Source of the DNA: Escherichia phage P896
DNA: 64,000 bases
Strand: one strand, 5' to 3'
Sequence record: OL451225.1
The translations under genes were made by a program, and so were the position numbers. Each line of letters begins with the position of its first letter. Position 1 is the stretch's first letter. Of the stretch, positions 3,231-59,444 are shown piece after piece. The notes beneath the pieces are model-generated. The model saw only the letters and a program-made list of their open reading frames with translations, was not told where the DNA came from and searched no databases.

Positions 3231-3513
3231 GGAATGAAATGAAACCTGCTGCAGTCATGACAACTTCTTTCTTAGCAAAGACTGTAATTGCAATTGGTGC
3301 TTCGGACTCAAGTTGCCCAGTTACTACACCATTAAAAATATTTTCTGTTTGTTCAGAATTTACAAAGTTTTCAACAGGGCGAAGGTCAAACTTCTTATCT
3401 TCGCCAAACACGCGCCGCAGTTCATTACCCACCGCGCTGTCAAACTCTTCTGAAGCCGGGATAACATTCTCAACTACCAGTTCCTGACCATTAAAGCGAA
3501 AAGATGATTTCAT
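3223..3513 (-). CDS. Hypothetical protein (alt.-1-like position)
   Basis: ORF with GAGGAAAA Shine-Dalgarno before the internal ATG at 3513; the track ORF 3223..3546 is probably an N-terminal over-extension. Confidence 0.5.
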   Translation of the reverse strand: MKSSFRFNGQELVVENVIPASEEFDSAVGNELRRVFGEDKKFDLRPVENFVNSEQTENIFNGVVTGQLESEAPIAITVFAKKEVVMTAAGFISFRK

Positions 3514-3576
3514 TTTGTTTTCCTCATGTGCAATTGATATGAACATTGTATCGCACTTCCTTGTGCTTGTAAACCC

Positions 3577-5637
3577 CTACGAAAGGAATTTAGGAGGAAT
3601 AGCTTCCAAATTAATACAACTAGCAAGAATACCAAGACCTTGATTGACTTTCTTCGTTACCCCAGAGGATGCAAACGATGCAAAGTCAACAGATTCTGCT
3701 GGCTCTTCTGTTTCCTCGCCCTGATAAACGACAAGCTCACCAGTTTCCATCAACACATCACCATCATAGATAACTGCATTTTCATCCAGTTGGTCCGTAG
3801 TCTGGATATCAGCTTCCAGCATTTTGACGTTCGCGTTTCCTTGATACGAAGCATCAGTAATTTTGGTAATCTTAACTACAGTCCCACGAGGAAGAATAAC
3901 TTCCTGCTCGGACGGGTTGCTTGACAATTCCCCAGGAACAATTACGTTAATTAAGTCCGCCCCAGAAATTTTCCAACCAACATGCATCATTACGTGGTCG
4001 CGGCGTGCATCCGGCATATCTGGTAAAACAATTTCGTCATCAGCCTGGAAAGATGTCCCATCACGATAGTCCTGATGAACTGCAGCCATAGCAACGTTCG
4101 CCACCCAGCCACCAAAGATAATCGGTTTAAACGACGTTGATACATAGTTCCTGAAATAAAATAATTTAGATTTCTTAATTTTATCAAATGTAGGAACGTT
4201 TAAATATTGACCACGCCAAAGAGTTGTATTAGGCGGCAACTTATGTCCAATTTCAAAGGCCGAATCCAATTCCTTAATTGTTTCGACAACTCTGTCTAGA
4301 TTTAGGAATTCAGCTTCTTCTTCATAATATTTGCCCATCAAATAATTATTAATATCGGCATAGTTTGCTCCACAATAATCTGCAATTGCTTCTCGCTGGC
4401 CATAATGGAAACGGTTGTCAGTATACCCTGCTGTGAAATTAAGAGTATTTTCTGATGCTTCTTCGGCAAAGTCTTTAACTGCAACACGAATGGCGCTTGT
4501 GTATTCTTTTTCCCAGAGCGAGGCTGCATAAGTGGCTGCATCCAGGTTAGGAGGAGCATCATTCATTTTTCTTTCGATAAATGCGGCTTTGCGAAGGTTA
4601 AGAATCTCTGCGCATGATTCGGCAAAAATCTGCATCTGCTTCATACTACCAACCGGAGCACGTTTAAGTTCACGATGCATACGGTTAAAAATTGGGTCAG
4701 AGTCTTCAACACGAATTTCTTCTTTCCAAACACCATTTGCTCGCATAGCCTCATCTGCTGCACGCATACGAGCCATAGTATTCGTTTCAGAAGGTCGAAC
4801 AAAAATTTCCAGTTCTTCATAATCATCGATAAGTTCTGCCGTAGCCGGTCGACTAAACTTAGCAGCTTCTGCATCAATTTCGTCCCAACCGTCTGGTACG
4901 GAATCACTTGGAGCGTACTGGGCTTGTGCAATAGCTCGGCGACTGATTTTAGTTTTCTGGGCAACAGCAGCATCGGTCTTTTTGTTTGCTGCGTCAATCA
5001 GAACTTCGGCTGCGATTTCTTGTTTGGAGACTTGTGCGCCTGTATCTTTATTAGTGAATACATCGCCGACTTTAGTTTCAACTTTTTGATATTTCTCAGG
5101 GACCGGTGGCATACCATCAACCGAAAGCAGGTCAACACCCTTTTTGTACATAATTACATAAGCGTTCTTTTTACCGAGGCCGGAAGCATTCGGAAGAACA
5201 TGATAACGCCCGCTGGTTTTCATTTGAATCAGTCGATTCATAATACGAATAACAGCTTGGTCTTGTCCTTTCATCTTTTTGGATGGGAAACGGAACAAGA
5301 CTACATCAGGTTTGCCTAGTTTAATGCTTTCCCAGACTGTAACAAAAATCAGGTTAATCGCATCAAGAGGTTTTTCACCTAGACCACCCTTCAGAGGAAT
5401 AGCATGGCCATGTGAAGTCCCGGATAACAGGAATACCTCGGCAATTGCATCGCCACGTTTATATTGTTTAACTGTTTCTTTGCCCGTGAATTGCATCAAA
5501 CGGGCCATAAGAGAATTGGTCCCAGGAACACCGAATTGCCAAACCTGCGGGACCTTGTATTTTGGATTCATATTAATGACAGGATAACCGAAGGCTTCGA
5601 TATATTTGTCAAAGAGTTCATTTAATTGTTCAGACAT
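3577..5637 (-). CDS. alt: Alt-family mono-ADP-ribosyltransferase (head-packaged), copy 1
   Basis: 686 aa (T4 Alt is 682 aa); R/STS/E-x-E motifs (WRGQ..., YVSTSF, EQEVILPRGT); conserved N-terminal region shared with the adjacent paralog. Confidence 0.8.
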   Translation of the reverse strand: MSEQLNELFDKYIEAFGYPVINMNPKYKVPQVWQFGVPGTNSLMARLMQFTGKETVKQYKRGDAIAEVFLLSGTSHGHAIPLKGGLGEKPLDAINLIFVTVWESIKLGKPDVVLFRFPSKKMKGQDQAVIRIMNRLIQMKTSGRYHVLPNASGLGKKNAYVIMYKKGVDLLSVDGMPPVPEKYQKVETKVGDVFTNKDTGAQVSKQEIAAEVLIDAANKKTDAAVAQKTKISRRAIAQAQYAPSDSVPDGWDEIDAEAAKFSRPATAELIDDYEELEIFVRPSETNTMARMRAADEAMRANGVWKEEIRVEDSDPIFNRMHRELKRAPVGSMKQMQIFAESCAEILNLRKAAFIERKMNDAPPNLDAATYAASLWEKEYTSAIRVAVKDFAEEASENTLNFTAGYTDNRFHYGQREAIADYCGANYADINNYLMGKYYEEEAEFLNLDRVVETIKELDSAFEIGHKLPPNTTLWRGQYLNVPTFDKIKKSKLFYFRNYVSTSFKPIIFGGWVANVAMAAVHQDYRDGTSFQADDEIVLPDMPDARRDHVMMHVGWKISGADLINVIVPGELSSNPSEQEVILPRGTVVKITKITDASYQGNANVKMLEADIQTTDQLDENAVIYDGDVLMETGELVVYQGEETEEPAESVDFASFASSGVTKKVNQGLGILASCINLEAIPPKFLS

Positions 5638-32569: not shown

Positions 32570-32577
32570 ATATAAAT
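32570..32577 (+). promoter_or_regulatory. T4 late promoter (TATAAATA) for gene 34
   Basis: Exact TATAAATA 31 nt upstream of the gene 34 ATG, in the divergent rnh/34 intergenic region. Confidence 0.7.
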
Positions 32578-45692: not shown

Positions 45693-45788
45693 GTCTTTAT
45701 CTATCTTATTACCAATAAACATACCAACAATCACACCTGCGATTGCCGCAAAAATACAAAGCAATGCAAACTCAACTCCAAAACTCAT
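45690..45788 (-). CDS. Small hydrophobic protein (32 aa), coupled to gene 52
   Basis: MSFGVEFALLCIFAAIAGVIVGMFIGNKIDKD; its ATG overlaps the gene 52 stop (ATGA). Confidence 0.4.
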   Translation of the reverse strand: MSFGVEFALLCIFAAIAGVIVGMFIGNKIDKD

Positions 45789-47164
45789 AGAGCCTCCAAA
45801 TCATTAAGGTATTCAGTTTTAACATCAGTTGTCTTCCAGTACTCATGCTCAGCTTTCTTAGCCTTTGCTTCGTCTGCAAGCTTCTTGGCTTCATCAGAGG
45901 TCATATGGTAGATGTTCATCGCCACTAACTTCTCTGCATAATCGCCATATATTTCACTCGCCTGGAGTTCCTCAATCAACTTCTTACGAGGTTTCCCCTG
46001 GATAACAACCTTACCATCAATCACTTCTTTAATAAAGAAGACTTTCGCGCGGGCCAGTTTAAATGCCGCTTCAGTTTCTTTAATCTTACTGTCAATTCGC
46101 ACTTGAACATAAGTCTTACGGACATCAACGAAATCGCGAATCAGGTCAAGCGTGTTGGTGTATTCAGCCAGCTTGCCTTTGTGATTAAGCACCGTTAAGT
46201 TCTGGGAGAGCTTCTCAATCAGACCGAAGTCTTTCATGATTTTCTCATGATTCTCTTCTTCAGTACCATCCAGCTTGTATTCTTTGCGGAATTTAATCTT
46301 AAACCCGAAACCATGCTCGCCGCAGTTATCTTTCCAGGTGATAAAACCTTTCTCTTCCAGTGGGTCCAGAATTTTACTTATATACTTTTCCAGGTTCCAT
46401 TGGACCGGGATTTCAGTAATTTCCATTTGAGTCCTGGAGGTCATTTTGTATGTGCCATGAAGCTCATACTTGCCAGGCTCTTCCAATTCAACAACTTTGC
46501 CACGGAATTCTGGATATTTTACTTTCGGAGCAACCGGCTCACGACCTTCCACGATAGCTTTAACAGCTTCCTTGACGTCCTGGAACGAATGAGGAAGAAT
46601 ATCAGTAGCGAAGCCAACAGCAATCCCAGAAGTGGCGTTAAGTAATACAGTAGGAATAACAGGAAGATAAAAAGCAGGAGGCTTATGTTCTTCATCAGGA
46701 TGGACCGGAGCATATTCTGTATCCTTAAACAAGTTATAAAAGTTCTTTGAAACCCTTGCGAATACATAACGAGCTGATGATGCTTCTGGCACCATTCTGG
46801 AACCAAAGTTACCTTGCCCATCAAACATGGGGTATTCATTTTTATATGTTGCAACCAGACCAGAAGTTGCTTCTTCCGCTGATGCTTCGCCATGGTGATA
46901 ACCATAATCAGCTACGCCACCTGCAATGGATGCAACCTTATGGAATTTATTCTTATCACCGCGCGCCAGGTCTAATGCTCTCGCCATAACAAATCTGTGA
47001 ACTGGTTTAAAACCATCAATCATGTTTGGGATGGCACGACCTTCCACAGTGTATATAGCATATGACAATGCTTCCACATCAATAATGTCTTTTAGACTGC
47101 GTGGGTTAAGGGTCCCCATGGAATCACTGAACTGTTTGGACATCATACTTAAAACGTCAGACAT
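45785..47164 (-). CDS. 52: DNA topoisomerase II medium subunit gp52 (GyrA-like cleavage core)
   Basis: 459 aa (T4 is 442 aa); GyrA N-terminal features (...AIPNMIDGFKPVHRFV..., active-site region ...SSARYVFARVS...). Confidence 0.9.
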   Translation of the reverse strand: MSDVLSMMSKQFSDSMGTLNPRSLKDIIDVEALSYAIYTVEGRAIPNMIDGFKPVHRFVMARALDLARGDKNKFHKVASIAGGVADYGYHHGEASAEEATSGLVATYKNEYPMFDGQGNFGSRMVPEASSARYVFARVSKNFYNLFKDTEYAPVHPDEEHKPPAFYLPVIPTVLLNATSGIAVGFATDILPHSFQDVKEAVKAIVEGREPVAPKVKYPEFRGKVVELEEPGKYELHGTYKMTSRTQMEITEIPVQWNLEKYISKILDPLEEKGFITWKDNCGEHGFGFKIKFRKEYKLDGTEEENHEKIMKDFGLIEKLSQNLTVLNHKGKLAEYTNTLDLIRDFVDVRKTYVQVRIDSKIKETEAAFKLARAKVFFIKEVIDGKVVIQGKPRKKLIEELQASEIYGDYAEKLVAMNIYHMTSDEAKKLADEAKAKKAEHEYWKTTDVKTEYLNDLEAL

Positions 47165-52158: not shown

Positions 52159-54393
52159 TTATTCCTTATTGGTCGCTTCCACGGCCTTCATGATTTGAGC
52201 AACGTTCTGCACTTGTTCAGTTGACATGGCGTTACGGTTATATAAAAAGTGTGAAACAATCGGGTGATTCTTTTCAAATTCAAAAACCATTTTATCGCTT
52301 GTTACCGAAGCGTTTTTGGTCAGGTCGTCATAAATCTTATTACAAAGGACCAGCGTTTCCTGCATGGTCTTATCAACCGTTCCACTGTTATATGCGTTAT
52401 AGGCAAAGAACTTATTGAACTGCATTAGTTCGGCATAGTCAGTATTCACATCTTTCTGAACATCTTTCGCATAAAAATACTTGAACATAAAATTCAGTTC
52501 TGCATATTCAGACAGGATAGGAATATAATAACGCGAACGGCTTGAAGCGGCAATGTACTGGTCCGCATCAACCGCATCAATCAATTCCACATAACGATTG
52601 ACTGCAGCTTCAATCAAACAATCACACTGTGCCAGCTTGGTAACCTTTTTCTGAAGCTGTGGACGAATAACACAGAATTCATTGATTTCCAACAGGTTTG
52701 CCAGTTTACACAATGTCTGGGTCCCGAAGGTCGTGGTGCCATATTCTTGATTCAACGGGGAAATGCTACTGCGGTTAATGAATACAGCATAACCATCGAT
52801 TTCCTCTGCATCAGCTGCACATGTAAATTCTTCAACAGACTGCCATTTGCCGTTGGTTTTAGTCCAACGAATCAATGATGGAGTCTTTGACTTAACGCGC
52901 GCTTTCGGGTCGGCAACCGGAATCCAGTCTTTTACAAGGGCAATCAGTTCAGACGTACGATAGATATTAACCGTATCGCCTTCAAATCGTTCCTGGAGTT
53001 GAACCATCAACCGTGTTTGAATTTCGCTGGTTGGGTCAACGAACAATAGACTACTACCTTGTACAGTCGGAACTTTACCAGATGCTTTGAGCTTTTTGGC
53101 TTTCGCGCTGGTGTCATACAGCATTGAACTGATACCACGAATCATCGCAATTCGCCCTTTAGCATCGTCAATAACAATATTCAAGGTATCATTATGAATA
53201 CCAAACATGCTTGTCAGGCTTGCAGTATTCGTGTTCGAGCTTGAGTTGCGCAGACGTTTCAGACGAGTAGTGCTATAGATATCATAGACAACCCCGGCAT
53301 TAACAAGGTCTTTGTCCAGCTCGAACATTTCGTACATCTGGTTAAAAGTCAATTGTGATTTTGTAAATTTCGTTTCAGCATTACGAGCTTTCAGAAAATT
53401 ACGAGCTTCATAATTCAAACTCTGCAATTCGCGATACGTATGGCGGATGCATTCTGATTCCTGCCATTTCTTACAATCATCTTCCATGACCTTCTTATCA
53501 AGGGATTCAATACGTTCAACGATATTTGCGACCGTACGTTTGTCCAGTGATAATGCTTCGCGAGAAGGTGCAATATCCAACGAACCCATCGGGAACTTAA
53601 TAAAGACAACATCATTTTTGGCAGTCATCCAGGTTTTCTTTGTATAACCGTCACCAATCGGATAAACAATACCACCGTAAATTGCATAAAGTCCATAACG
53701 TTCTGGACTGCTATAATTAATACGCGCTGGAGCATAATAATCATCAAATTCCGGGAAGTATTCAATTTCGCCAGCGCCTTGCACTTCAGCCAGCCCGGCA
53801 AATGGACGCATGATATATGCAATCTCGTGGCGGAACTTACCGAAATCATTACTATCAACCGGGACAACAACTTCAATCCCTGTGCGGTCACCAGGTTTCA
53901 TTGGTTCGCTAAAGGTTGGCTTAATCTGTGGACCATCGCCATCCATATAAGCGACATAACCATTAACTTGTCCATCATGATATGAAATCAGGCTAAACGT
54001 CTCTGTATAACTGAACGGAGATTTAGAACCCAGGCCAAAGCCACCAATAAAATCGTTGGATTCAGCCTTGGATGATGCAAAGAAACTGTTATACAGACCT
54101 GGAGTATTTTCATCACCACGAATCTGGAAATCACTCATACCCGGACCAAAGTCACGACATACAAAACGTGGGTCCAGTTCACCAGGAGCTTGCACAATGA
54201 ATTTATCCTGACAGCCATTGAGCATATGAGCATCAATCATATTGGTAATCAGCTCACGAACAACTGCGCGCACCTTATTTGTGTAAAGGTCGCTGGTCAG
54301 AATCTTAAACACCTTTGGAGATGCCTGGATTGTGAATGCTGACGCCTTGGCACCATTACCAAGGATTGTTTCCTTTTCAGTTTCTAAAATCAT
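52159..54393 (-). CDS. rIIA: Rapid-lysis protein rIIA (GHKL-type ATPase fold)
   Basis: 744 aa (T4 is 725 aa); N-terminus ...EKETILGNG.K..AF.I.ASPKVFKIL.SDLYTNK.RAVVRELITNMIDAH.LNG...RFVCRDFGPGMSDF...GGFGLGSKSPFSYT as in T4 rIIA. Confidence 0.9.
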   Translation of the reverse strand: MILETEKETILGNGAKASAFTIQASPKVFKILTSDLYTNKVRAVVRELITNMIDAHMLNGCQDKFIVQAPGELDPRFVCRDFGPGMSDFQIRGDENTPGLYNSFFASSKAESNDFIGGFGLGSKSPFSYTETFSLISYHDGQVNGYVAYMDGDGPQIKPTFSEPMKPGDRTGIEVVVPVDSNDFGKFRHEIAYIMRPFAGLAEVQGAGEIEYFPEFDDYYAPARINYSSPERYGLYAIYGGIVYPIGDGYTKKTWMTAKNDVVFIKFPMGSLDIAPSREALSLDKRTVANIVERIESLDKKVMEDDCKKWQESECIRHTYRELQSLNYEARNFLKARNAETKFTKSQLTFNQMYEMFELDKDLVNAGVVYDIYSTTRLKRLRNSSSNTNTASLTSMFGIHNDTLNIVIDDAKGRIAMIRGISSMLYDTSAKAKKLKASGKVPTVQGSSLLFVDPTSEIQTRLMVQLQERFEGDTVNIYRTSELIALVKDWIPVADPKARVKSKTPSLIRWTKTNGKWQSVEEFTCAADAEEIDGYAVFINRSSISPLNQEYGTTTFGTQTLCKLANLLEINEFCVIRPQLQKKVTKLAQCDCLIEAAVNRYVELIDAVDADQYIAASSRSRYYIPILSEYAELNFMFKYFYAKDVQKDVNTDYAELMQFNKFFAYNAYNSGTVDKTMQETLVLCNKIYDDLTKNASVTSDKMVFEFEKNHPIVSHFLYNRNAMSTEQVQNVAQIMKAVEATNKE

Positions 54394-54400
54394 GTTTTTC

Positions 54401-54610
54401 TCACTTTATGTTACGTTTGATTAATTCTGCAACTTCAAGAAGTTCATCCTTTGTTGCGGTGTCTGAAGCTATTTTATTACGGATTTCTTTGAAGCGTTCT
54501 TTAAACTCTTCGGCTTCTCTTATATCAAAAAATCGTTGGATAACGCGGTATTCTTTATGAACAGCTTTATCAAACAGCTCCATATTAACTTTGAAGTTCG
54601 TCATTTCCAA
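54401..54610 (-). CDS. Hypothetical protein (rIIA.1-like position)
   Basis: 69-aa ORF. Confidence 0.45.
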   Translation of the reverse strand: MEMTNFKVNMELFDKAVHKEYRVIQRFFDIREAEEFKERFKEIRNKIASDTATKDELLEVAELIKRNIK

Positions 54611-54869
54611 TCTCCTGTAATATTTTTCTCATACTACGCATGGTAGCTTTATGTTCTTGGTCATGGTATATCAATGCAAGGAGTGCTTCAATTCGCTCCT
54701 CAGGGACCTTCTGGCCAGCCTTAATACTCATGGCTGTTGTTCTTACAGCTAATAAGTAACTTCGCTTCCTGTCGCTGTCTGGGAGCTCCTGCACCTTCCT
54801 CAGACCAGCTTCCATAATACAACGAGCAACATTTTGCAGATTAACTAAACTTCCGTCAGACATAATCAT
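54585..54869 (-). CDS. Hypothetical protein
   Basis: 94-aa ORF with GAGGTGA Shine-Dalgarno. Confidence 0.45.
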   Translation of the reverse strand: MIMSDGSLVNLQNVARCIMEAGLRKVQELPDSDRKRSYLLAVRTTAMSIKAGQKVPEERIEALLALIYHDQEHKATMRSMRKILQEIGNDELQS

Positions 54870-54886
54870 ATTTTCACCTCAAAGAC

Positions 54887-54918
54887 ATCTTAACACACTT
54901 TTTGTGGCTTGTACATAA
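54887..54918 (-). promoter_or_regulatory. Early-type promoter variant (TGTACA -35, TAAGAT -10)
   Basis: Minus strand TGTACAAGCC-N-GTTAAGATG; same architecture as the promoter at 63849-63880. Confidence 0.35.
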
Positions 54919-54944
54919 TAAAAAGGTCTCCCGAAGGAGACCAA
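54918..54944 (-). terminator. Intrinsic terminator
   Basis: Minus-strand GGUCUCC-UUCG-GGAGACC followed by UUUUUAUUAU. Confidence 0.65.
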
Positions 54945-54947
54945 ATT

Positions 54948-55100
54948 TTATTCTACTTTATAGACCTGACCATACGCCATGAAAGTTTCACCTTCCCAGG
55001 TTTCGCACGTGATTGTCACAAATTCTGCAAACAAAGGTTTTTTCTCTGCCCAGAGAAAACCATATTCACCGGTAGCGAGTGTAATCCAGTATTTAGTCAT
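54948..55100 (-). CDS. Small hypothetical protein (50 aa) with late promoter
   Basis: AGGAGACAAU Shine-Dalgarno before MTKYWITL...; the track ORF is extended upstream into the promoter and the topoisomerase stop. Confidence 0.4.
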   Translation of the reverse strand: MTKYWITLATGEYGFLWAEKKPLFAEFVTITCETWEGETFMAYGQVYKVE

Positions 55101-55137
55101 ATTGTCTCCTAGTAGCGGGAGAATATTCTCCCACATC

Positions 55138-55145
55138 TATTTATA
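55138..55145 (-). promoter_or_regulatory. T4 late promoter (TATAAATA) overlapping the gene 39 stop codon
   Basis: Exact TATAAATA on the minus strand, about 37 nt upstream of the ATG at 55100. Confidence 0.45.
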
Positions 55146-56973
55146 GCGTCGCATTCATCCAATCTTTACGCTGTTGGGAATCTTTACCGAATAGCATTTC
55201 GAACAGTTCTTTCCAGTTATCAGGCAATTGAACAACTTCGAATACCGGCTCGAGCAATACGCGTTTGTACTCAGAATCTTCCAAAGAACCAAGCCCCTTG
55301 ATATATCGGATGGTGTGCTTCGGAAGTTTATCCTTAGCTTCTTCATAGTCAGGAAGAGAATAGAACCATTCTTGTTTGTCTTTGAGCTGCGCAATAATAA
55401 CAGGAGTTTTCACAAAGCGAATTCGTCCTTCATGGAACAGCTCTGGCCAGTTACTGAAAAACGCCAATAACGATGGATAGATACTACCGACACCATCCAC
55501 ATCCGCATCTGTCATGATAGCAATGTTTCGGTAATTCATATTCTTGGCCGGTTGTCCAATCGTTAACCCAGTAATTGCACACACATCAAAGGCTTCAGCG
55601 TTCTTCATAACTTCAACAGCTTTCAGACCCCATGTGTTTTTAAACTTACCACGTAATGGATAAGCACCTTGCAATTCACGGTCGCGAACCTTAATAAATG
55701 GCCCTGTTGCAGAATCACCTTCGGTCAGGAACAGAGTCGTTTCCAACTTATCATTGCCCCATTCGTTGGCTTTGATATGCTTTTGTACCTTGGCCTTTGA
55801 AGCTTTCTTATTTGCTTTAGTCTCTGCTGCTTTCTCTGCAGCCAATTTACGGGCTAATGCAGCTTCAACAATCGGCATAATCAGCGGTTCATTTTTCAGA
55901 ATAGCTTGTGCGATTTTCTTGGCATCAATCTTGATGTGATTTCGAATTTCACCGGCCGGAGAAGTCAATCGCTCCTTAGTCTGGGAATCAAATCGCATAT
56001 TGCTCATATCGCGGATGAACATAAGCATGGTGAGGCATTCTTTAACTCGTGCCTTGGTCACCTCAATGCCTTTATATTTGCGCTTAATCGCTGGTTGAAG
56101 ATGTTCGCAGATATCATCCATAACACATTCAACGTGGTGCCCGCCATTCTTTGTATGAATGTTGTTGACATAAGTCAACTGACGAAAACCATCCGGGCTA
56201 GTCGTAAAGGCCATCGATACCGTATCAGTTTCCTGGATAACAACTTCGGTTCCAAATTGCTTGGAGAACTTCTTGAAGTTGCCATCAACCTTTTTACCAT
56301 TAAAGGTAAACTGAATATCCGGATAAACAACTGCAAGAGTCTGTAGACGGTCCAATGTAATATCCAGATAAATCTGGGACAGACTATTTTCTTCAAAGTG
56401 ACTAAAGTCTGGAATAAATATAACAGTCGTACCTTTACCCTTTGATTTCTTAGTCGACCAACATTTGTTTTCCATACCGTTGGAGCAGTTAACAGTGATT
56501 TCATTTGCACCATCAGCGGTAATCCCGGTGAACAATACAGAGAAAATATTAGTCAGAGAAGACCCGACGCCATTCATCCCGCCAGTTTTACGTTCAGCAT
56601 CATCGCCAAAGTTGCCACCTGCTTTTGGAATAGTCCATGCTGCAACAGGGCCAGGGATTTGTTCACCGTTTTGGTCTGTAACCATTGCTTGTGGAATACC
56701 ACGGCCATTATCAGAAACCGAAATCTGATTATCTTTAATTTGGACATCAATTTTATTGGCAAATTTAAAACTGGTGCGAATTGCTTCATCAACAGAGTTA
56801 TCGATAATTTCATCAATCAGTTTTACAATACCAGGAACATAGCTTACGGACTTATATTCACCAAACAAGAATCGCTCATGCGCTTCATTTGAACTGGAAC
56901 CAATATACATCCCGGAACGTTTTTTGATATGCTCGACGTCCGAGAGTACTTTAATTTCATTATTAATCATCAT
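55141..56973 (-). CDS. 39: DNA topoisomerase II large subunit (GyrB-like), single uninterrupted ORF covering the gene 39 + gene 60 equivalent
   Basis: 610 aa continuous ORF with GHKL ATPase motifs (...DNGRGIP..., GGMNGVGSS...) and a Toprim region; no separate gene 60 and no mobA between it and rIIA. Confidence 0.85.
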   Translation of the reverse strand: MMINNEIKVLSDVEHIKKRSGMYIGSSSNEAHERFLFGEYKSVSYVPGIVKLIDEIIDNSVDEAIRTSFKFANKIDVQIKDNQISVSDNGRGIPQAMVTDQNGEQIPGPVAAWTIPKAGGNFGDDAERKTGGMNGVGSSLTNIFSVLFTGITADGANEITVNCSNGMENKCWSTKKSKGKGTTVIFIPDFSHFEENSLSQIYLDITLDRLQTLAVVYPDIQFTFNGKKVDGNFKKFSKQFGTEVVIQETDTVSMAFTTSPDGFRQLTYVNNIHTKNGGHHVECVMDDICEHLQPAIKRKYKGIEVTKARVKECLTMLMFIRDMSNMRFDSQTKERLTSPAGEIRNHIKIDAKKIAQAILKNEPLIMPIVEAALARKLAAEKAAETKANKKASKAKVQKHIKANEWGNDKLETTLFLTEGDSATGPFIKVRDRELQGAYPLRGKFKNTWGLKAVEVMKNAEAFDVCAITGLTIGQPAKNMNYRNIAIMTDADVDGVGSIYPSLLAFFSNWPELFHEGRIRFVKTPVIIAQLKDKQEWFYSLPDYEEAKDKLPKHTIRYIKGLGSLEDSEYKRVLLEPVFEVVQLPDNWKELFEMLFGKDSQQRKDWMNATL

Positions 56974-56995
56974 CTTTCCTCTTGTGTATGGAGGT

Positions 56996-57022
56996 ATTAT
57001 AAGTCACATATTTTAAAGCAAA
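56996..57022 (-). promoter_or_regulatory. MotA-dependent middle promoter candidate for gene 39
   Basis: Minus strand tTTGCTTTA (MotA box), 12 nt, then TATAAT, about 25 nt upstream of the gene 39 ATG. Confidence 0.45.
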
Positions 57023-57040
57023 AAGGCCCGAAGGCCTTAT
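57019..57040 (-). terminator. Intrinsic terminator after the lipoprotein gene
   Basis: Minus-strand AAGGCC-UUCG-GGCCUU followed by a U-run; overlaps the upstream stop codon. Confidence 0.5.
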
Positions 57041-57297
57041 TCAAATCGGATGGTACTGTTCTTGAACAATAATCCAGAACAAACAGTTCCTTCAACTTTC
57101 TTACCAGTTGGCCCCACGGCTGTAAAACCTGTGTGTTGAAAATCATCTTTACCACAAGAGAACCAGTTATATCCGGTGATTTGGATTTGCTCATAGCCGT
57201 TTGCATCTAATACCCGAATGGCATTATCTGCATCAGTACAACCTGCCAATGAAACCGCCAGCACCAGCGCGGCAATAGAACGATTAATGTATTTCAT
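57037..57297 (-). CDS. Small secreted lipoprotein (86 aa)
   Basis: Signal peptide with lipobox LAGC (MKYINRSIAALVLAVSLAGCTD...); two further Cys residues in the mature part. Confidence 0.55.
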   Translation of the reverse strand: MKYINRSIAALVLAVSLAGCTDADNAIRVLDANGYEQIQITGYNWFSCGKDDFQHTGFTAVGPTGKKVEGTVCSGLLFKNSTIRFE

Positions 57298-57303
57298 AAT
57301 TTC

Positions 57304-57480
57304 TCACTTAGTCAGCAGGTCATAGAACCCGCCGTTAACATGTTTAGGAGCTGAAACTAACCGAACAGCCAGCCGATGGCAATCAGGACAAACATCATTA
57401 TCTCTTTCAGAGATTTTCTTGATTTTTTCGTATTCTTTCGCGCAGTCTTCGGATTGGCATTTGTAGTCATAAAGTGGCAT
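57304..57480 (-). CDS. Zinc-ribbon protein (58 aa, FmdB-like CxxxxC...CPxC)
   Basis: Hand-translated: MPLYDYKCQSEDCAKEYEKIKKISERDNDVCPDCHRLAVRLVSAPKHVNGGFYDLLTK. Confidence 0.5.
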   Translation of the reverse strand: MPLYDYKCQSEDCAKEYEKIKKISERDNDVCPDCHRLAVRLVSAPKHVNGGFYDLLTK

Positions 57481-58120: not shown

Positions 58121-58612
58121 TTAGGCAAAATGAATATCAGCATACTCAACGATAAAGCTTTCAGGAACAACCTTAAAGGTTCCAAGGAACACAATATTAT
58201 ACAATTTAACCCCTTCTTCAACCCACTGGTCGGTGATGTAACCGGACATACTAGTGGTTTCATAAGTCGGACCATACATGCAATTGTATTCAAACGGTTT
58301 AGGTGAAACAAAAAAGACACCTTTGCCCAATTTCCATTTAAAATCAACCCCAACATGAGACTGGTCAATGGTTTCAACGTCTTCGGCCACAGGAGCGATG
58401 TACCCAGTAAATTCGGTTGATTCCAGGAATTTAGGATGCACATAAGCCAATTGAGTTTCAGTCTGACCATGTTTAGGAATAATACGCACTTTAACTTCTT
58501 TAATTCCGCCTACTAAATTAGTGCGAAGACTCACAACCTCAACAAAACGACCAGCCGCTTTAGAACGAGATTCTTTAGAAACACGTACAATATCACCAGC
58601 TTCAACTTTCAT
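58121..58612 (-). CDS. Hypothetical protein (MotB-sized, 163 aa), paralog of the next gene
   Basis: C-terminus YITDQWVEEGVKLYNIVFLGTFKVVPESFIVE is homologous to the C-terminus of 58689..59444; size and position resemble T4 motB. Confidence 0.45.
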   Translation of the reverse strand: MKVEAGDIVRVSKESRSKAAGRFVEVVSLRTNLVGGIKEVKVRIIPKHGQTETQLAYVHPKFLESTEFTGYIAPVAEDVETIDQSHVGVDFKWKLGKGVFFVSPKPFEYNCMYGPTYETTSMSGYITDQWVEEGVKLYNIVFLGTFKVVPESFIVEYADIHFA

Positions 58613-58688: not shown

Positions 58689-59444
58689 TTAATTAAAAAT
58701 TTCAACAACCATGGAACGTGGTACAACAGTAAATTCACCAGCATGGACAACGTTCAGGAGTTCAACACCATCTTCAATCCACTGGTCTGTTACCCAACCA
58801 CAAATGGAACTATTAAATGGACGTTTGATTTGAACTGGTTTGCACAACAAGTCAATAGGGTCACCCAGTTCGCTAACTTCTTTCAGCAGTACAGATTCAC
58901 GCGGATAAAGGATAGCTTCAAGATTGTCACCTGATTCATTGACTGCAGTAAATTCAAAGATGCTTTGGTGATTGTGGTACTTAACTGTTTTAACGGTAAA
59001 TGGAGTAAATCCAAAAATACCTTTTAGTACACGCCAACCAGCATGCATTGCAACGGTCTTTCCAAACTGACTGGCATCTTCAATAAGCTGATAGGTTTTA
59101 CCAACTTTGATAGGAGTTTCTTCAACTTCTTTGAAGAGTTCAATCTCAGCTTCATAAACCATAATTTTTTCTACTTCATTTGTATCAAGGCGACGTGCAT
59201 GTAGAATATATGCTTTATCAAACCAGTTACTTTTTACAAAAGTTTCAACAATAAATTCACCTTCGCCTAAAGCATCAGTCAGAGTATTATACCCAGAAAC
59301 CATAGCTGCATTTTGAATAATAGGTTCAATCAGTTGATAAGTTTTGTTAATTTCAATAGTCATATTTTGTTTCTCAAGTTTTAATGGTTTAATTGGGCGA
59401 ACATACATACTTACAACATCAAAGTCAATAAATTCTGGTTTCAT
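58689..59444 (-). CDS. Hypothetical protein with internal duplication, paralog of 58121..58612
   Basis: 251 aa; two internal KTYQLIE-containing repeats; C-terminus WVTDQWIEDGVELLNVVHAGEFTVVPRSMVVE. Confidence 0.5.
   Translation of the reverse strand: MKPEFIDFDVVSMYVRPIKPLKLEKQNMTIEINKTYQLIEPIIQNAAMVSGYNTLTDALGEGEFIVETFVKSNWFDKAYILHARRLDTNEVEKIMVYEAEIELFKEVEETPIKVGKTYQLIEDASQFGKTVAMHAGWRVLKGIFGFTPFTVKTVKYHNHQSIFEFTAVNESGDNLEAILYPRESVLLKEVSELGDPIDLLCKPVQIKRPFNSSICGWVTDQWIEDGVELLNVVHAGEFTVVPRSMVVEIFN

Follow-up and report, generated by a model that had tools for sequence, protein, structure and literature searches.

Escherichia phage P896 carries gene 39, which encodes the large subunit of its DNA topoisomerase II, as one uninterrupted reading frame on the minus strand (55141..56973). 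It almost certainly represents the ordinary, unbroken form of gene 39 in a Gaprivervirus, specifying the ATPase and Toprim subunit of a two-subunit type IIA topoisomerase. All coordinates are positions within the window, i.e., the 64,000-nt stretch of sequence record OL451225.1 that was analysed as a whole; the region 54401–56973 served as a 2573-nt query. There is no trace in the window of the MobA/bypass cassette by which the homologous gene of phage T4 is split, and the translation of gene 39 therefore needs no recoding. We found nothing that contradicts the description of gene 39 as unsplit.

One reading frame for the complete large subunit

The open reading frame (ORF) consists of 610 codons without an internal stop, and the chance of such a stop-free run at the base composition of the window is approximately 1e-18; its product would have a mass of ~69 kDa. 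A preliminary description of this DNA had reported a single continuous GyrB-like ORF of 610 amino acids (aa) with ATPase and Toprim regions, with which the ORF, the Pfam matches and the catalytic motifs all agree. In Pfam, HATPase_c (PF02518) scores 41.5 bits (cut-off 26.4), DNA_gyraseB (PF00204) 56.2 bits (cut-off 27) and TOPRIM_C (PF16898) 35.6 bits (cut-off 29). The Toprim domain (PF01751) stays under its cut-off (17 bits, as compared to 23.1) while its E and DxD motifs are nonetheless present, so that the assignment of this domain relies on these motifs and on homology with T4 gp39 and gp60. Both Toprim motifs occur in one frame (TEGDSA, residues 417–422; DADVDG, residues 489–494). The N-box, G1 and G2 motifs of the ATPase are found as EIIDNSVDE (55–63), DNGRGIP (88–94) and GGMNGVGSS (131–139), and the QTK loop of the transducer as QTKERL (331–336). 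Moreover, phrog_543 (“DNA topoisomerase II large subunit”) covers residues 1–609 (E = 2e-278). The best match amongst solved structures is the unsplit T6 gp39 (8ylu_C), of which residues 1–604 correspond to residues 2–607 of the window protein (E = 0), followed by an artificially fused T4 gp39–gp60 (8yo3_C).

The gene begins with two adjacent ATGs (56968–56973, minus strand). The alignment with T4 gp39 starts at the second one (56970), which is also favoured by its spacing of 7 nt from a GAGG Shine-Dalgarno sequence; the product may, therefore, be 609 aa long. The partner subunit is encoded in the window as well: a GyrA/ParC-like homologue of gp52 of 459 aa (45785..47164, minus strand) includes a DNA_topoisoIV domain (PF00521, E = 1.4e-77), which implies a two-subunit enzyme of the T2/T6 type. 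The gp52 homologue is located roughly 8 kb from gene 39, on the same strand. Nothing supports an ORF of 146 aa that lies antisense within gene 39 (55906–56346, plus strand), and it is probably spurious.

Continuity at the position of the T4 split

The sequences of T4 gp39 and gp60 were taken from NC_000866, gene 60 being joined across its annotated 50-nt bypass before BLASTP. Residues 1–473 of T4 gp39 correspond to residues 2–476 of the window protein (73% identity, E = 0), the part (55546..56970, minus strand) that comprises the GHKL ATPase, the transducer and the first half of Toprim. The preliminary description would have been contradicted by a failure of the C-terminal ~150 aa to align with gp60, and the opposite was observed: residues 28–159 of gp60 match residues 476–607 (70% identity, E = 3e-70), the part (55153..55548, minus strand) with the second half of Toprim and TOPRIM_C. 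The two alignments join at one residue of the window protein, 476. Nothing in the window corresponds to the C-terminal 43 residues of T4 gp39 or to the N-terminal 27 of gp60; these unmatched ends are the insert-derived C-terminal and N-terminal extensions, CTE and NTE (Manning and Atkins, bioRxiv 10.1101/2022.08.31.505936).

In the codon alignment with T4, the equivalent of the gene 60 take-off site is Gly494 (GGT), directly followed by Val495 (GTC) (55489..55494, minus strand). The window codons at this junction are ATG ACA GAT GCG GAT GTG GAT GGT GTC GGT AGT ATC TAT CCA, where GAT GGT GTC GGT AGT occupies 55497–55483 (minus strand), while the T4 counterpart reads GAC GCA GAT CAC GAT GGA / TAGCCTTCGGGCTATC...ATTGGA / TTA GGT TCT ATT TAT CCT. 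Neither a GGA take-off codon nor a stop, a 50-nt gap or a landing site exists at the bypass position of the window, in line with the earlier expectation that no bypass-like take-off and landing codons would be present. Relative to the T2/T6-type sequence, many codon positions of the site are changed, so that it may be resistant to MobA.

Around the MobA site (aa 466–495), no insertion is seen in an alignment with the proteins of KIT03 and JS98 (605 aa each), SP18 and RZ (610 aa each) and VR7 (609 aa), nor are there any relics of a hit-and-run event at this site in the alignment with these five and T4. Residues 470–495 show no resemblance to the CTE or NTE. The comparison with T4 gp39/gp60 and with the unsplit subunits of the T2/T6 type, suggested as a check along with the preliminary description, showed them to be colinear with the window protein. 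Screening the 64-kb window by tblastn with the T4 insert (three frames), gp60.1 and a mobA fragment yielded nothing better than E = 0.46, and searches for a displaced gene 60, MobA, gp60.1, CTE or NTE by tblastn and blastn (word size 7) returned chance-level matches (best E 0.16 or worse). The sole gp60 match in the window is the 3′ end of the gene 39 ORF itself (55548–55153), with no second gp60 and no MobA, exactly as the absence of a separate gene 60 and mobA had been claimed.

The unsplit gene in related phages

Among T4-like phages, the window falls in the genus Gaprivervirus, near SP18, VR7 and TH54. Its 2573-nt region is 97.0% identical at the nucleotide level to Escherichia phage TH54 and 96.5% to Shigella phage SP18, with 93–95% identity for VR20, VR25, VR7 and others; SP18, VR7 and RZ are classified in the Tevenvirinae, genus Gaprivervirus. 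In 27 related records, one place accounts for 80% or more of the query, and 23 of the 30 related records listed align with it from end to end in one piece. The TH54 gp39 is an orthologue with 99.5% protein identity, and in SP18 and RZ, gp39 is 610 aa long as in the window and the three small genes downstream are alike too. In the SP18 annotation, the stretch encodes gp39 (“DNA topoisomerase II large subunit”), two hypothetical proteins, rIIA.1 and rIIA.

On a wider scale, a tblastn search of 50,697 phage records with the 610-aa protein as the query identified a gene 39 homologue in 2198 of them. The ancestral, uninvaded arrangement put forward in the preliminary description is supported by this distribution as well as by the literature: 1986 of the 2198 records hold a match in which 80% or more of the query is covered at one place, as compared to only 43 records with the T4 insert (mobA and bypass together, 1021 nt), which show 95% identity or more and come from T4 and its closest relatives. 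In an evenly spaced sample of 60 rows, only two matches, those in HY03 (T4-like) and Proteus phage PM2, have a span of approximately 2850 nt that includes an annotated homing endonuclease. It has been reported that mobA has split the gene “as compared to related phage” (Edgell et al., PMC2988022), that the T4 enzyme has three subunits and the T2/T6 enzyme two, the structures of both having been solved (Xin et al., PMC11461880), and that the MobA element entered contiguous “parental” Topo2L genes on independent occasions in six clades or more (Manning and Atkins, bioRxiv 10.1101/2022.08.31.505936); insertion into a contiguous parental gene is common to the three sources. The unsplit gene 39 is thus the usual and already documented state in T4 relatives, the split in T4 being the exception, and our result is itself already known in that the window gene is an orthologue of annotated genes in an arrangement regarded as parental.

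A contiguous gene could also be the outcome of a hit-and-run history, in which the lineage carried the MobA/bypass cassette and lost it, the continuous frame being restored secondarily. Such a course of events has a precedent in a clade of Aeromonas phages, where the gene is re-fused after loss of MobA (Manning and Atkins, bioRxiv 10.1101/2022.08.31.505936), and the longer, two-piece match in Aeromonas phage Aszh-1 (1998 nt) is consistent with re-fusion. The re-fused Aeromonas phage genes retain the CTE/NTE insertion, however, whereas the window gene has no insertion relative to KIT03 and JS98 and no similarity to CTE or NTE; moreover, gene 39 is contiguous in all the Gaprivervirus and Dhakavirus relatives sampled. 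We hold this history to be very improbable for P896; a perfectly clean restoration through recombination with an uninvaded phage would, however, look no different in the sequence.

The probability that the long ORF is an artefact of assembly or annotation that hides a split gene is practically negligible. A partial gene could be suggested by the label “large subunit N-terminal region” that several records give to the full-length orthologue (SP18, GQ981382; CJ20; JS98, EF469154). This label is a carry-over from T4 gp39. The same ORF of 605–610 aa is found in independent genomes of many isolates and is colinear with a solved full-length structure.

A motif, a hairpin and a small gene after gene 39

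The order and sizes of the ORFs announced downstream of gene 39, i.e., three small ones (50, 94 and 67 aa) followed by rIIA, were borne out, and the motif TATAAATA does overlap the topoisomerase stop codon, as had been noted. This exact match to the T4-type late-promoter consensus (55138..55145, minus strand), which is conserved in relatives, is a candidate late promoter of the 50-aa gene. It overlaps both the TAA stop (55141–55143) and the coding sequence of gene 39. From the motif onwards (55145–55138), the order is GATGT, the hairpin GGGAGAATATTCTCCC (55132–55117), AGGAG and the ATG at 55100, with 37 nt between TATAAATA and this ATG.

The hairpin, GGGAGAA-UA-UUCUCCC (55117..55132, minus strand), is perfectly paired (−14.6 kcal/mol, z = −4.25), lies downstream of the gene 39 stop and ahead of the 50-aa gene's Shine-Dalgarno sequence, and is not followed by a U-run. 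The 50-aa gene itself (54948..55100, minus strand) has its AGGAG 7 nt before the ATG and matches PHROG 4369 over residues 1–50 of 50. The mechanically delimited ORF would start from an earlier ATG and encode 62 aa, while SP18, VR7 and RZ annotate 153 bp. An intrinsic terminator follows (54917..54942, minus strand), with the stem GGUCUCC-UUCG-GGAGACC (54925–54942) and then UUUUUAUU (in DNA, GGTCTCC-TTCG-GGAGACC-TTTTTATT).

We compared this junction in 11 phages from at least six genera: the window, SP18, VR7 and RZ (Gaprivervirus); JS98 and Bp7 (Dhakavirus); CIP9 and KLB31 (Kanagawavirus); Kc304 (Winklervirus); Merlin (Moonvirus); and Klebsiella phage Roth66. All 11 have (A/T)ATAAATA at the gene 39 stop, despite differing gene 39 C-termini, as well as a Shine-Dalgarno sequence and small ORF; in Roth66, the motif lies wholly 3′ of the stop, outside the coding sequence. 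A hairpin occupies the equivalent place in 10 of the 11; outside Gaprivervirus its sequence is unrelated, but the pairing is kept. Seven of the eight sequences that were folded have z-scores from −3.5 to −5.4, the hairpin of Merlin being weak. No match was obtained in an Rfam scan of 54000–57400 with E values up to 1; the hairpins are thus not members of any described family of RNAs. The terminator comes after the 50-aa gene in all five phages whose sequence was read to this point, and in RZ and JS98 its stem differs in sequence with the pairing kept.

The 50-aa ORF is clearly coding and under purifying selection: its ratio of nonsynonymous to synonymous substitution rates (dN/dS) is ~0.02–0.2 in comparison with VR7, RZ, JS98, Bp7 and CIP9, and ~0.5 with the most distant, Kc304, where dS is saturated. 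The 50-aa gene is found in 261 phage records, and its position in the nine other phages checked is immediately downstream of gene 39. Conserved motifs in the protein are W(I/V)TL, G.(Y/F)GY(L/M)(W/F), PL, VTI and GQ(V/A), and a single-sequence AlphaFold model (pLDDT 72.4) predicts it to be all-beta. Foldseek found no structure in the PDB with E ≤ 0.001 for this model. The best matches (E = 0.63) were Hfq-like small barrels, with a TM score below 0.5 and a root-mean-square deviation of ~6 Å, and we do not regard the Hfq/Sm-like relation as meaningful. Searches with the three small proteins gave nothing in NCBIfam and only DUF7367 and T4_RIIA1 in Pfam. In the JS98 record (EF469154), the 50-aa and 94-aa genes are unannotated, leaving a gap of 590 bp (3318–3907 of the compared stretch).

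Late promoter or last cistron

It is plausible from the position and conservation of the motif that a late promoter drives the 50-aa gene, and we lean slightly towards this reading. In T4 relatives, the late-promoter motif lies at −13 to −6, where A or T at −13 is common (Nolan et al., PMC1524935); if TATAAATA occupies these positions, transcription is predicted to start near 55132, so that the predicted +1 in the window is the first G of the hairpin. The window includes 10 copies of TATAAATA (7547, 13406, 17591, 26048, 30504, 32571, 37653, 42118, 55138 and 62171). Eight of these are outside ORFs, and six of the eight, including 55138, are located 3–62 nt upstream of a start on the same strand; in so densely coding a genome, this distribution indicates that the motif is meaningful. 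The plus-strand copies at 32571, 37653 and 42118 stand ahead of large plus-strand ORFs and are likely late promoters.

Several observations weigh against a late promoter at 55138. The 10 copies are to be compared with 4.3 expected, and three out of 100 shuffles reach 10, which means that a single copy proves little. The motif overlaps coding sequence and a stop codon, and Nolan et al. (PMC1524935) observed late promoters exclusively ahead of T4 late-gene orthologues. Furthermore, the stem in CIP9, Roth66, Bp7, JS98 and Kc304 begins 0–5 nt past the motif and ahead of the predicted +1; in several genera, therefore, the full stem would form in read-through transcripts only. Most of these points fit a different explanation, to which we give not far short of an even chance: TATAAATA is no promoter, and the 50-aa gene is the last cistron of the early or middle transcript of gene 39, the unit being ended by the terminator at 54925–54942, which directly follows the 50-aa gene as would be expected of one operon with gene 39. 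The hairpin would then be a 3′ stabiliser, a processing site or a partial stop on the gene 39 transcript. Against this explanation stand the retention of (A/T)ATAAATA in all 11 phages with their differing C-termini, the Roth66 copy 3′ of the stop, and the motif being otherwise a good marker of gene-upstream positions in the window. The late-promoter and last-cistron readings are in fact compatible, and either or both may hold. In T4, a gene is often served by promoters of different classes.

Taken further, the unit downstream of gene 39 could be a micro-gene under its own regulation, conserved in many T4-like phages outside Tequatrovirus and transcribed late from its place within an early region; the hairpin would then determine how stable the mRNA is or keep early read-through apart from late expression. 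This broader picture is tentative and we consider it somewhat doubtful.

Flanking genes and transcription

Beyond the terminator, an early-promoter-like site (54887..54915, minus strand; TGTACA, 17 nt, TGT-TAAGAT) is inferred ahead of the 94-aa gene. JS98 has GTTTACA at this position; in KIT03, a promoter with GTTTACT / TGTGGTATAAT comes immediately after gene 39. The 94-aa gene (54585..54869, minus strand) was identified in Pfam and PHROG (DUF7367; PHROG 5382). It overlaps by 20 nt with rIIA.1 (54401..54604, minus strand; 67 aa; PF24210, T4_RIIA1), likewise recognised in both databases. Then follows rIIA (52159..54393, minus strand; 744 aa), recognised from its ORF and the SP18 annotation of the orthologous gene.

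Upstream of gene 39 lies a putative control region (56996..57038, minus strand): the terminator of gene 39.1 (57038–57023) overlaps the MotA-box-like TTTGCTTTA (57022–57014), from which TATAAT (57001–56996) is separated by 12 nt. This block is conserved in SP18, VR7 and JS98 and looks like a middle promoter, the combination of TTTGCTTTA, 12 nt and TATAAT matching the MotA-box middle-promoter pattern of T4. A generic sigma-70 scan found five promoter-like sites as compared to 8.1 in shuffled sequence, so that the early and middle promoter assignments rest on T4-specific motifs and their conservation.

The slot just upstream of gene 39 (56974–57038, minus strand) is variable. VR7 and RZ carry an ORF of 231–235 aa of the Endonuclease_7 family (PF02945) between promoter and gene 39 (767–1462 and 229–936 of the compared stretches, respectively), likely a free-standing homing endonuclease, and SP18 has a 132-aa ORF before the gene 39.1 terminator (2537–2935 of the compared stretch). 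The window and JS98 represent the empty form; with neither ORF present, the window has no additional ORF within gene 39 or immediately upstream of it.

In the order of events suggested by these motifs, gene 39 would be transcribed from the MotA-type middle promoter just upstream; the unit of (A/T)ATAAATA, hairpin, Shine-Dalgarno sequence, 50-aa gene and terminator would additionally be transcribed late; and a new early promoter would then drive the 94-aa gene, rIIA.1 and rIIA.

Further upstream, the homologues of MotB (58121–58612, minus strand) and MotB.1 (58689–59444, minus strand) have a similar C-terminal segment, TDQWVEEGVKLYNIVFLGTFKVVPESFIVE in one and TDQWIEDGVELLNVVHAGEFTVVPRSMVVE in the other, as seen by eye in the translations. 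This likeness suggests that the two are paralogous.

Comparison with known systems

As a discovery, the unsplit gene 39 carries little weight: it is the standard condition in T4-like phages, has been on record since T2 and T6 were compared and is already annotated in the nearest published genomes, and structures of the T6 enzyme have been solved. P896 contributes one more parental (MobA-free) sequence for studying the homing sites of the MobA/bypass cassette, and the analysis flags the “large subunit N-terminal region” database names as T4 carry-overs. The conserved unit of motif, hairpin, small gene and terminator is the only mildly new item, a minor lead for work on late transcription or small proteins in T4-like phages. 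It has no equivalent in KIT03 (T2/T6-type), which is without the 50-aa and 94-aa genes and has a strong early promoter and rIIA.1 directly after gene 39; in T4, nothing is annotated between gene 60 and rIIA.1.

The domain order and catalytic motifs of the window protein are the same as in bacterial GyrB/ParE and in the N-terminal half of eukaryotic Topo II. Its scores against the NCBIfam equivalogs are far under the cut-offs (e.g., gyrB, 211 as compared to 882 bits), which places it in a phage-specific subfamily. The T4-type enzyme relaxes DNA and is not known to supercoil it. ATP-dependent relaxation has been shown for both the T6 and the T4 enzymes (PMC11461880).

T4 gp39 and gp60 together constitute the same enzyme component as the window protein, each being homologous to one of its two parts. 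Unlike the window, T4 has the 43-aa insert-derived tail of gp39, a unique gp60 N-terminus of ~30 aa, a mobA gene (a pseudogene in laboratory T4) and the GGA-UAG...GGA coding gap. The T6/T2-type gp39 (8ylu; KIT03) is like that of the window, a single polypeptide with ATPase, transducer and Toprim that pairs with gp52. Indeed, KIT03 gp39 is colinear with the window protein from end to end at 74% identity, although KIT03 belongs to a different genus, Tequatrovirus.

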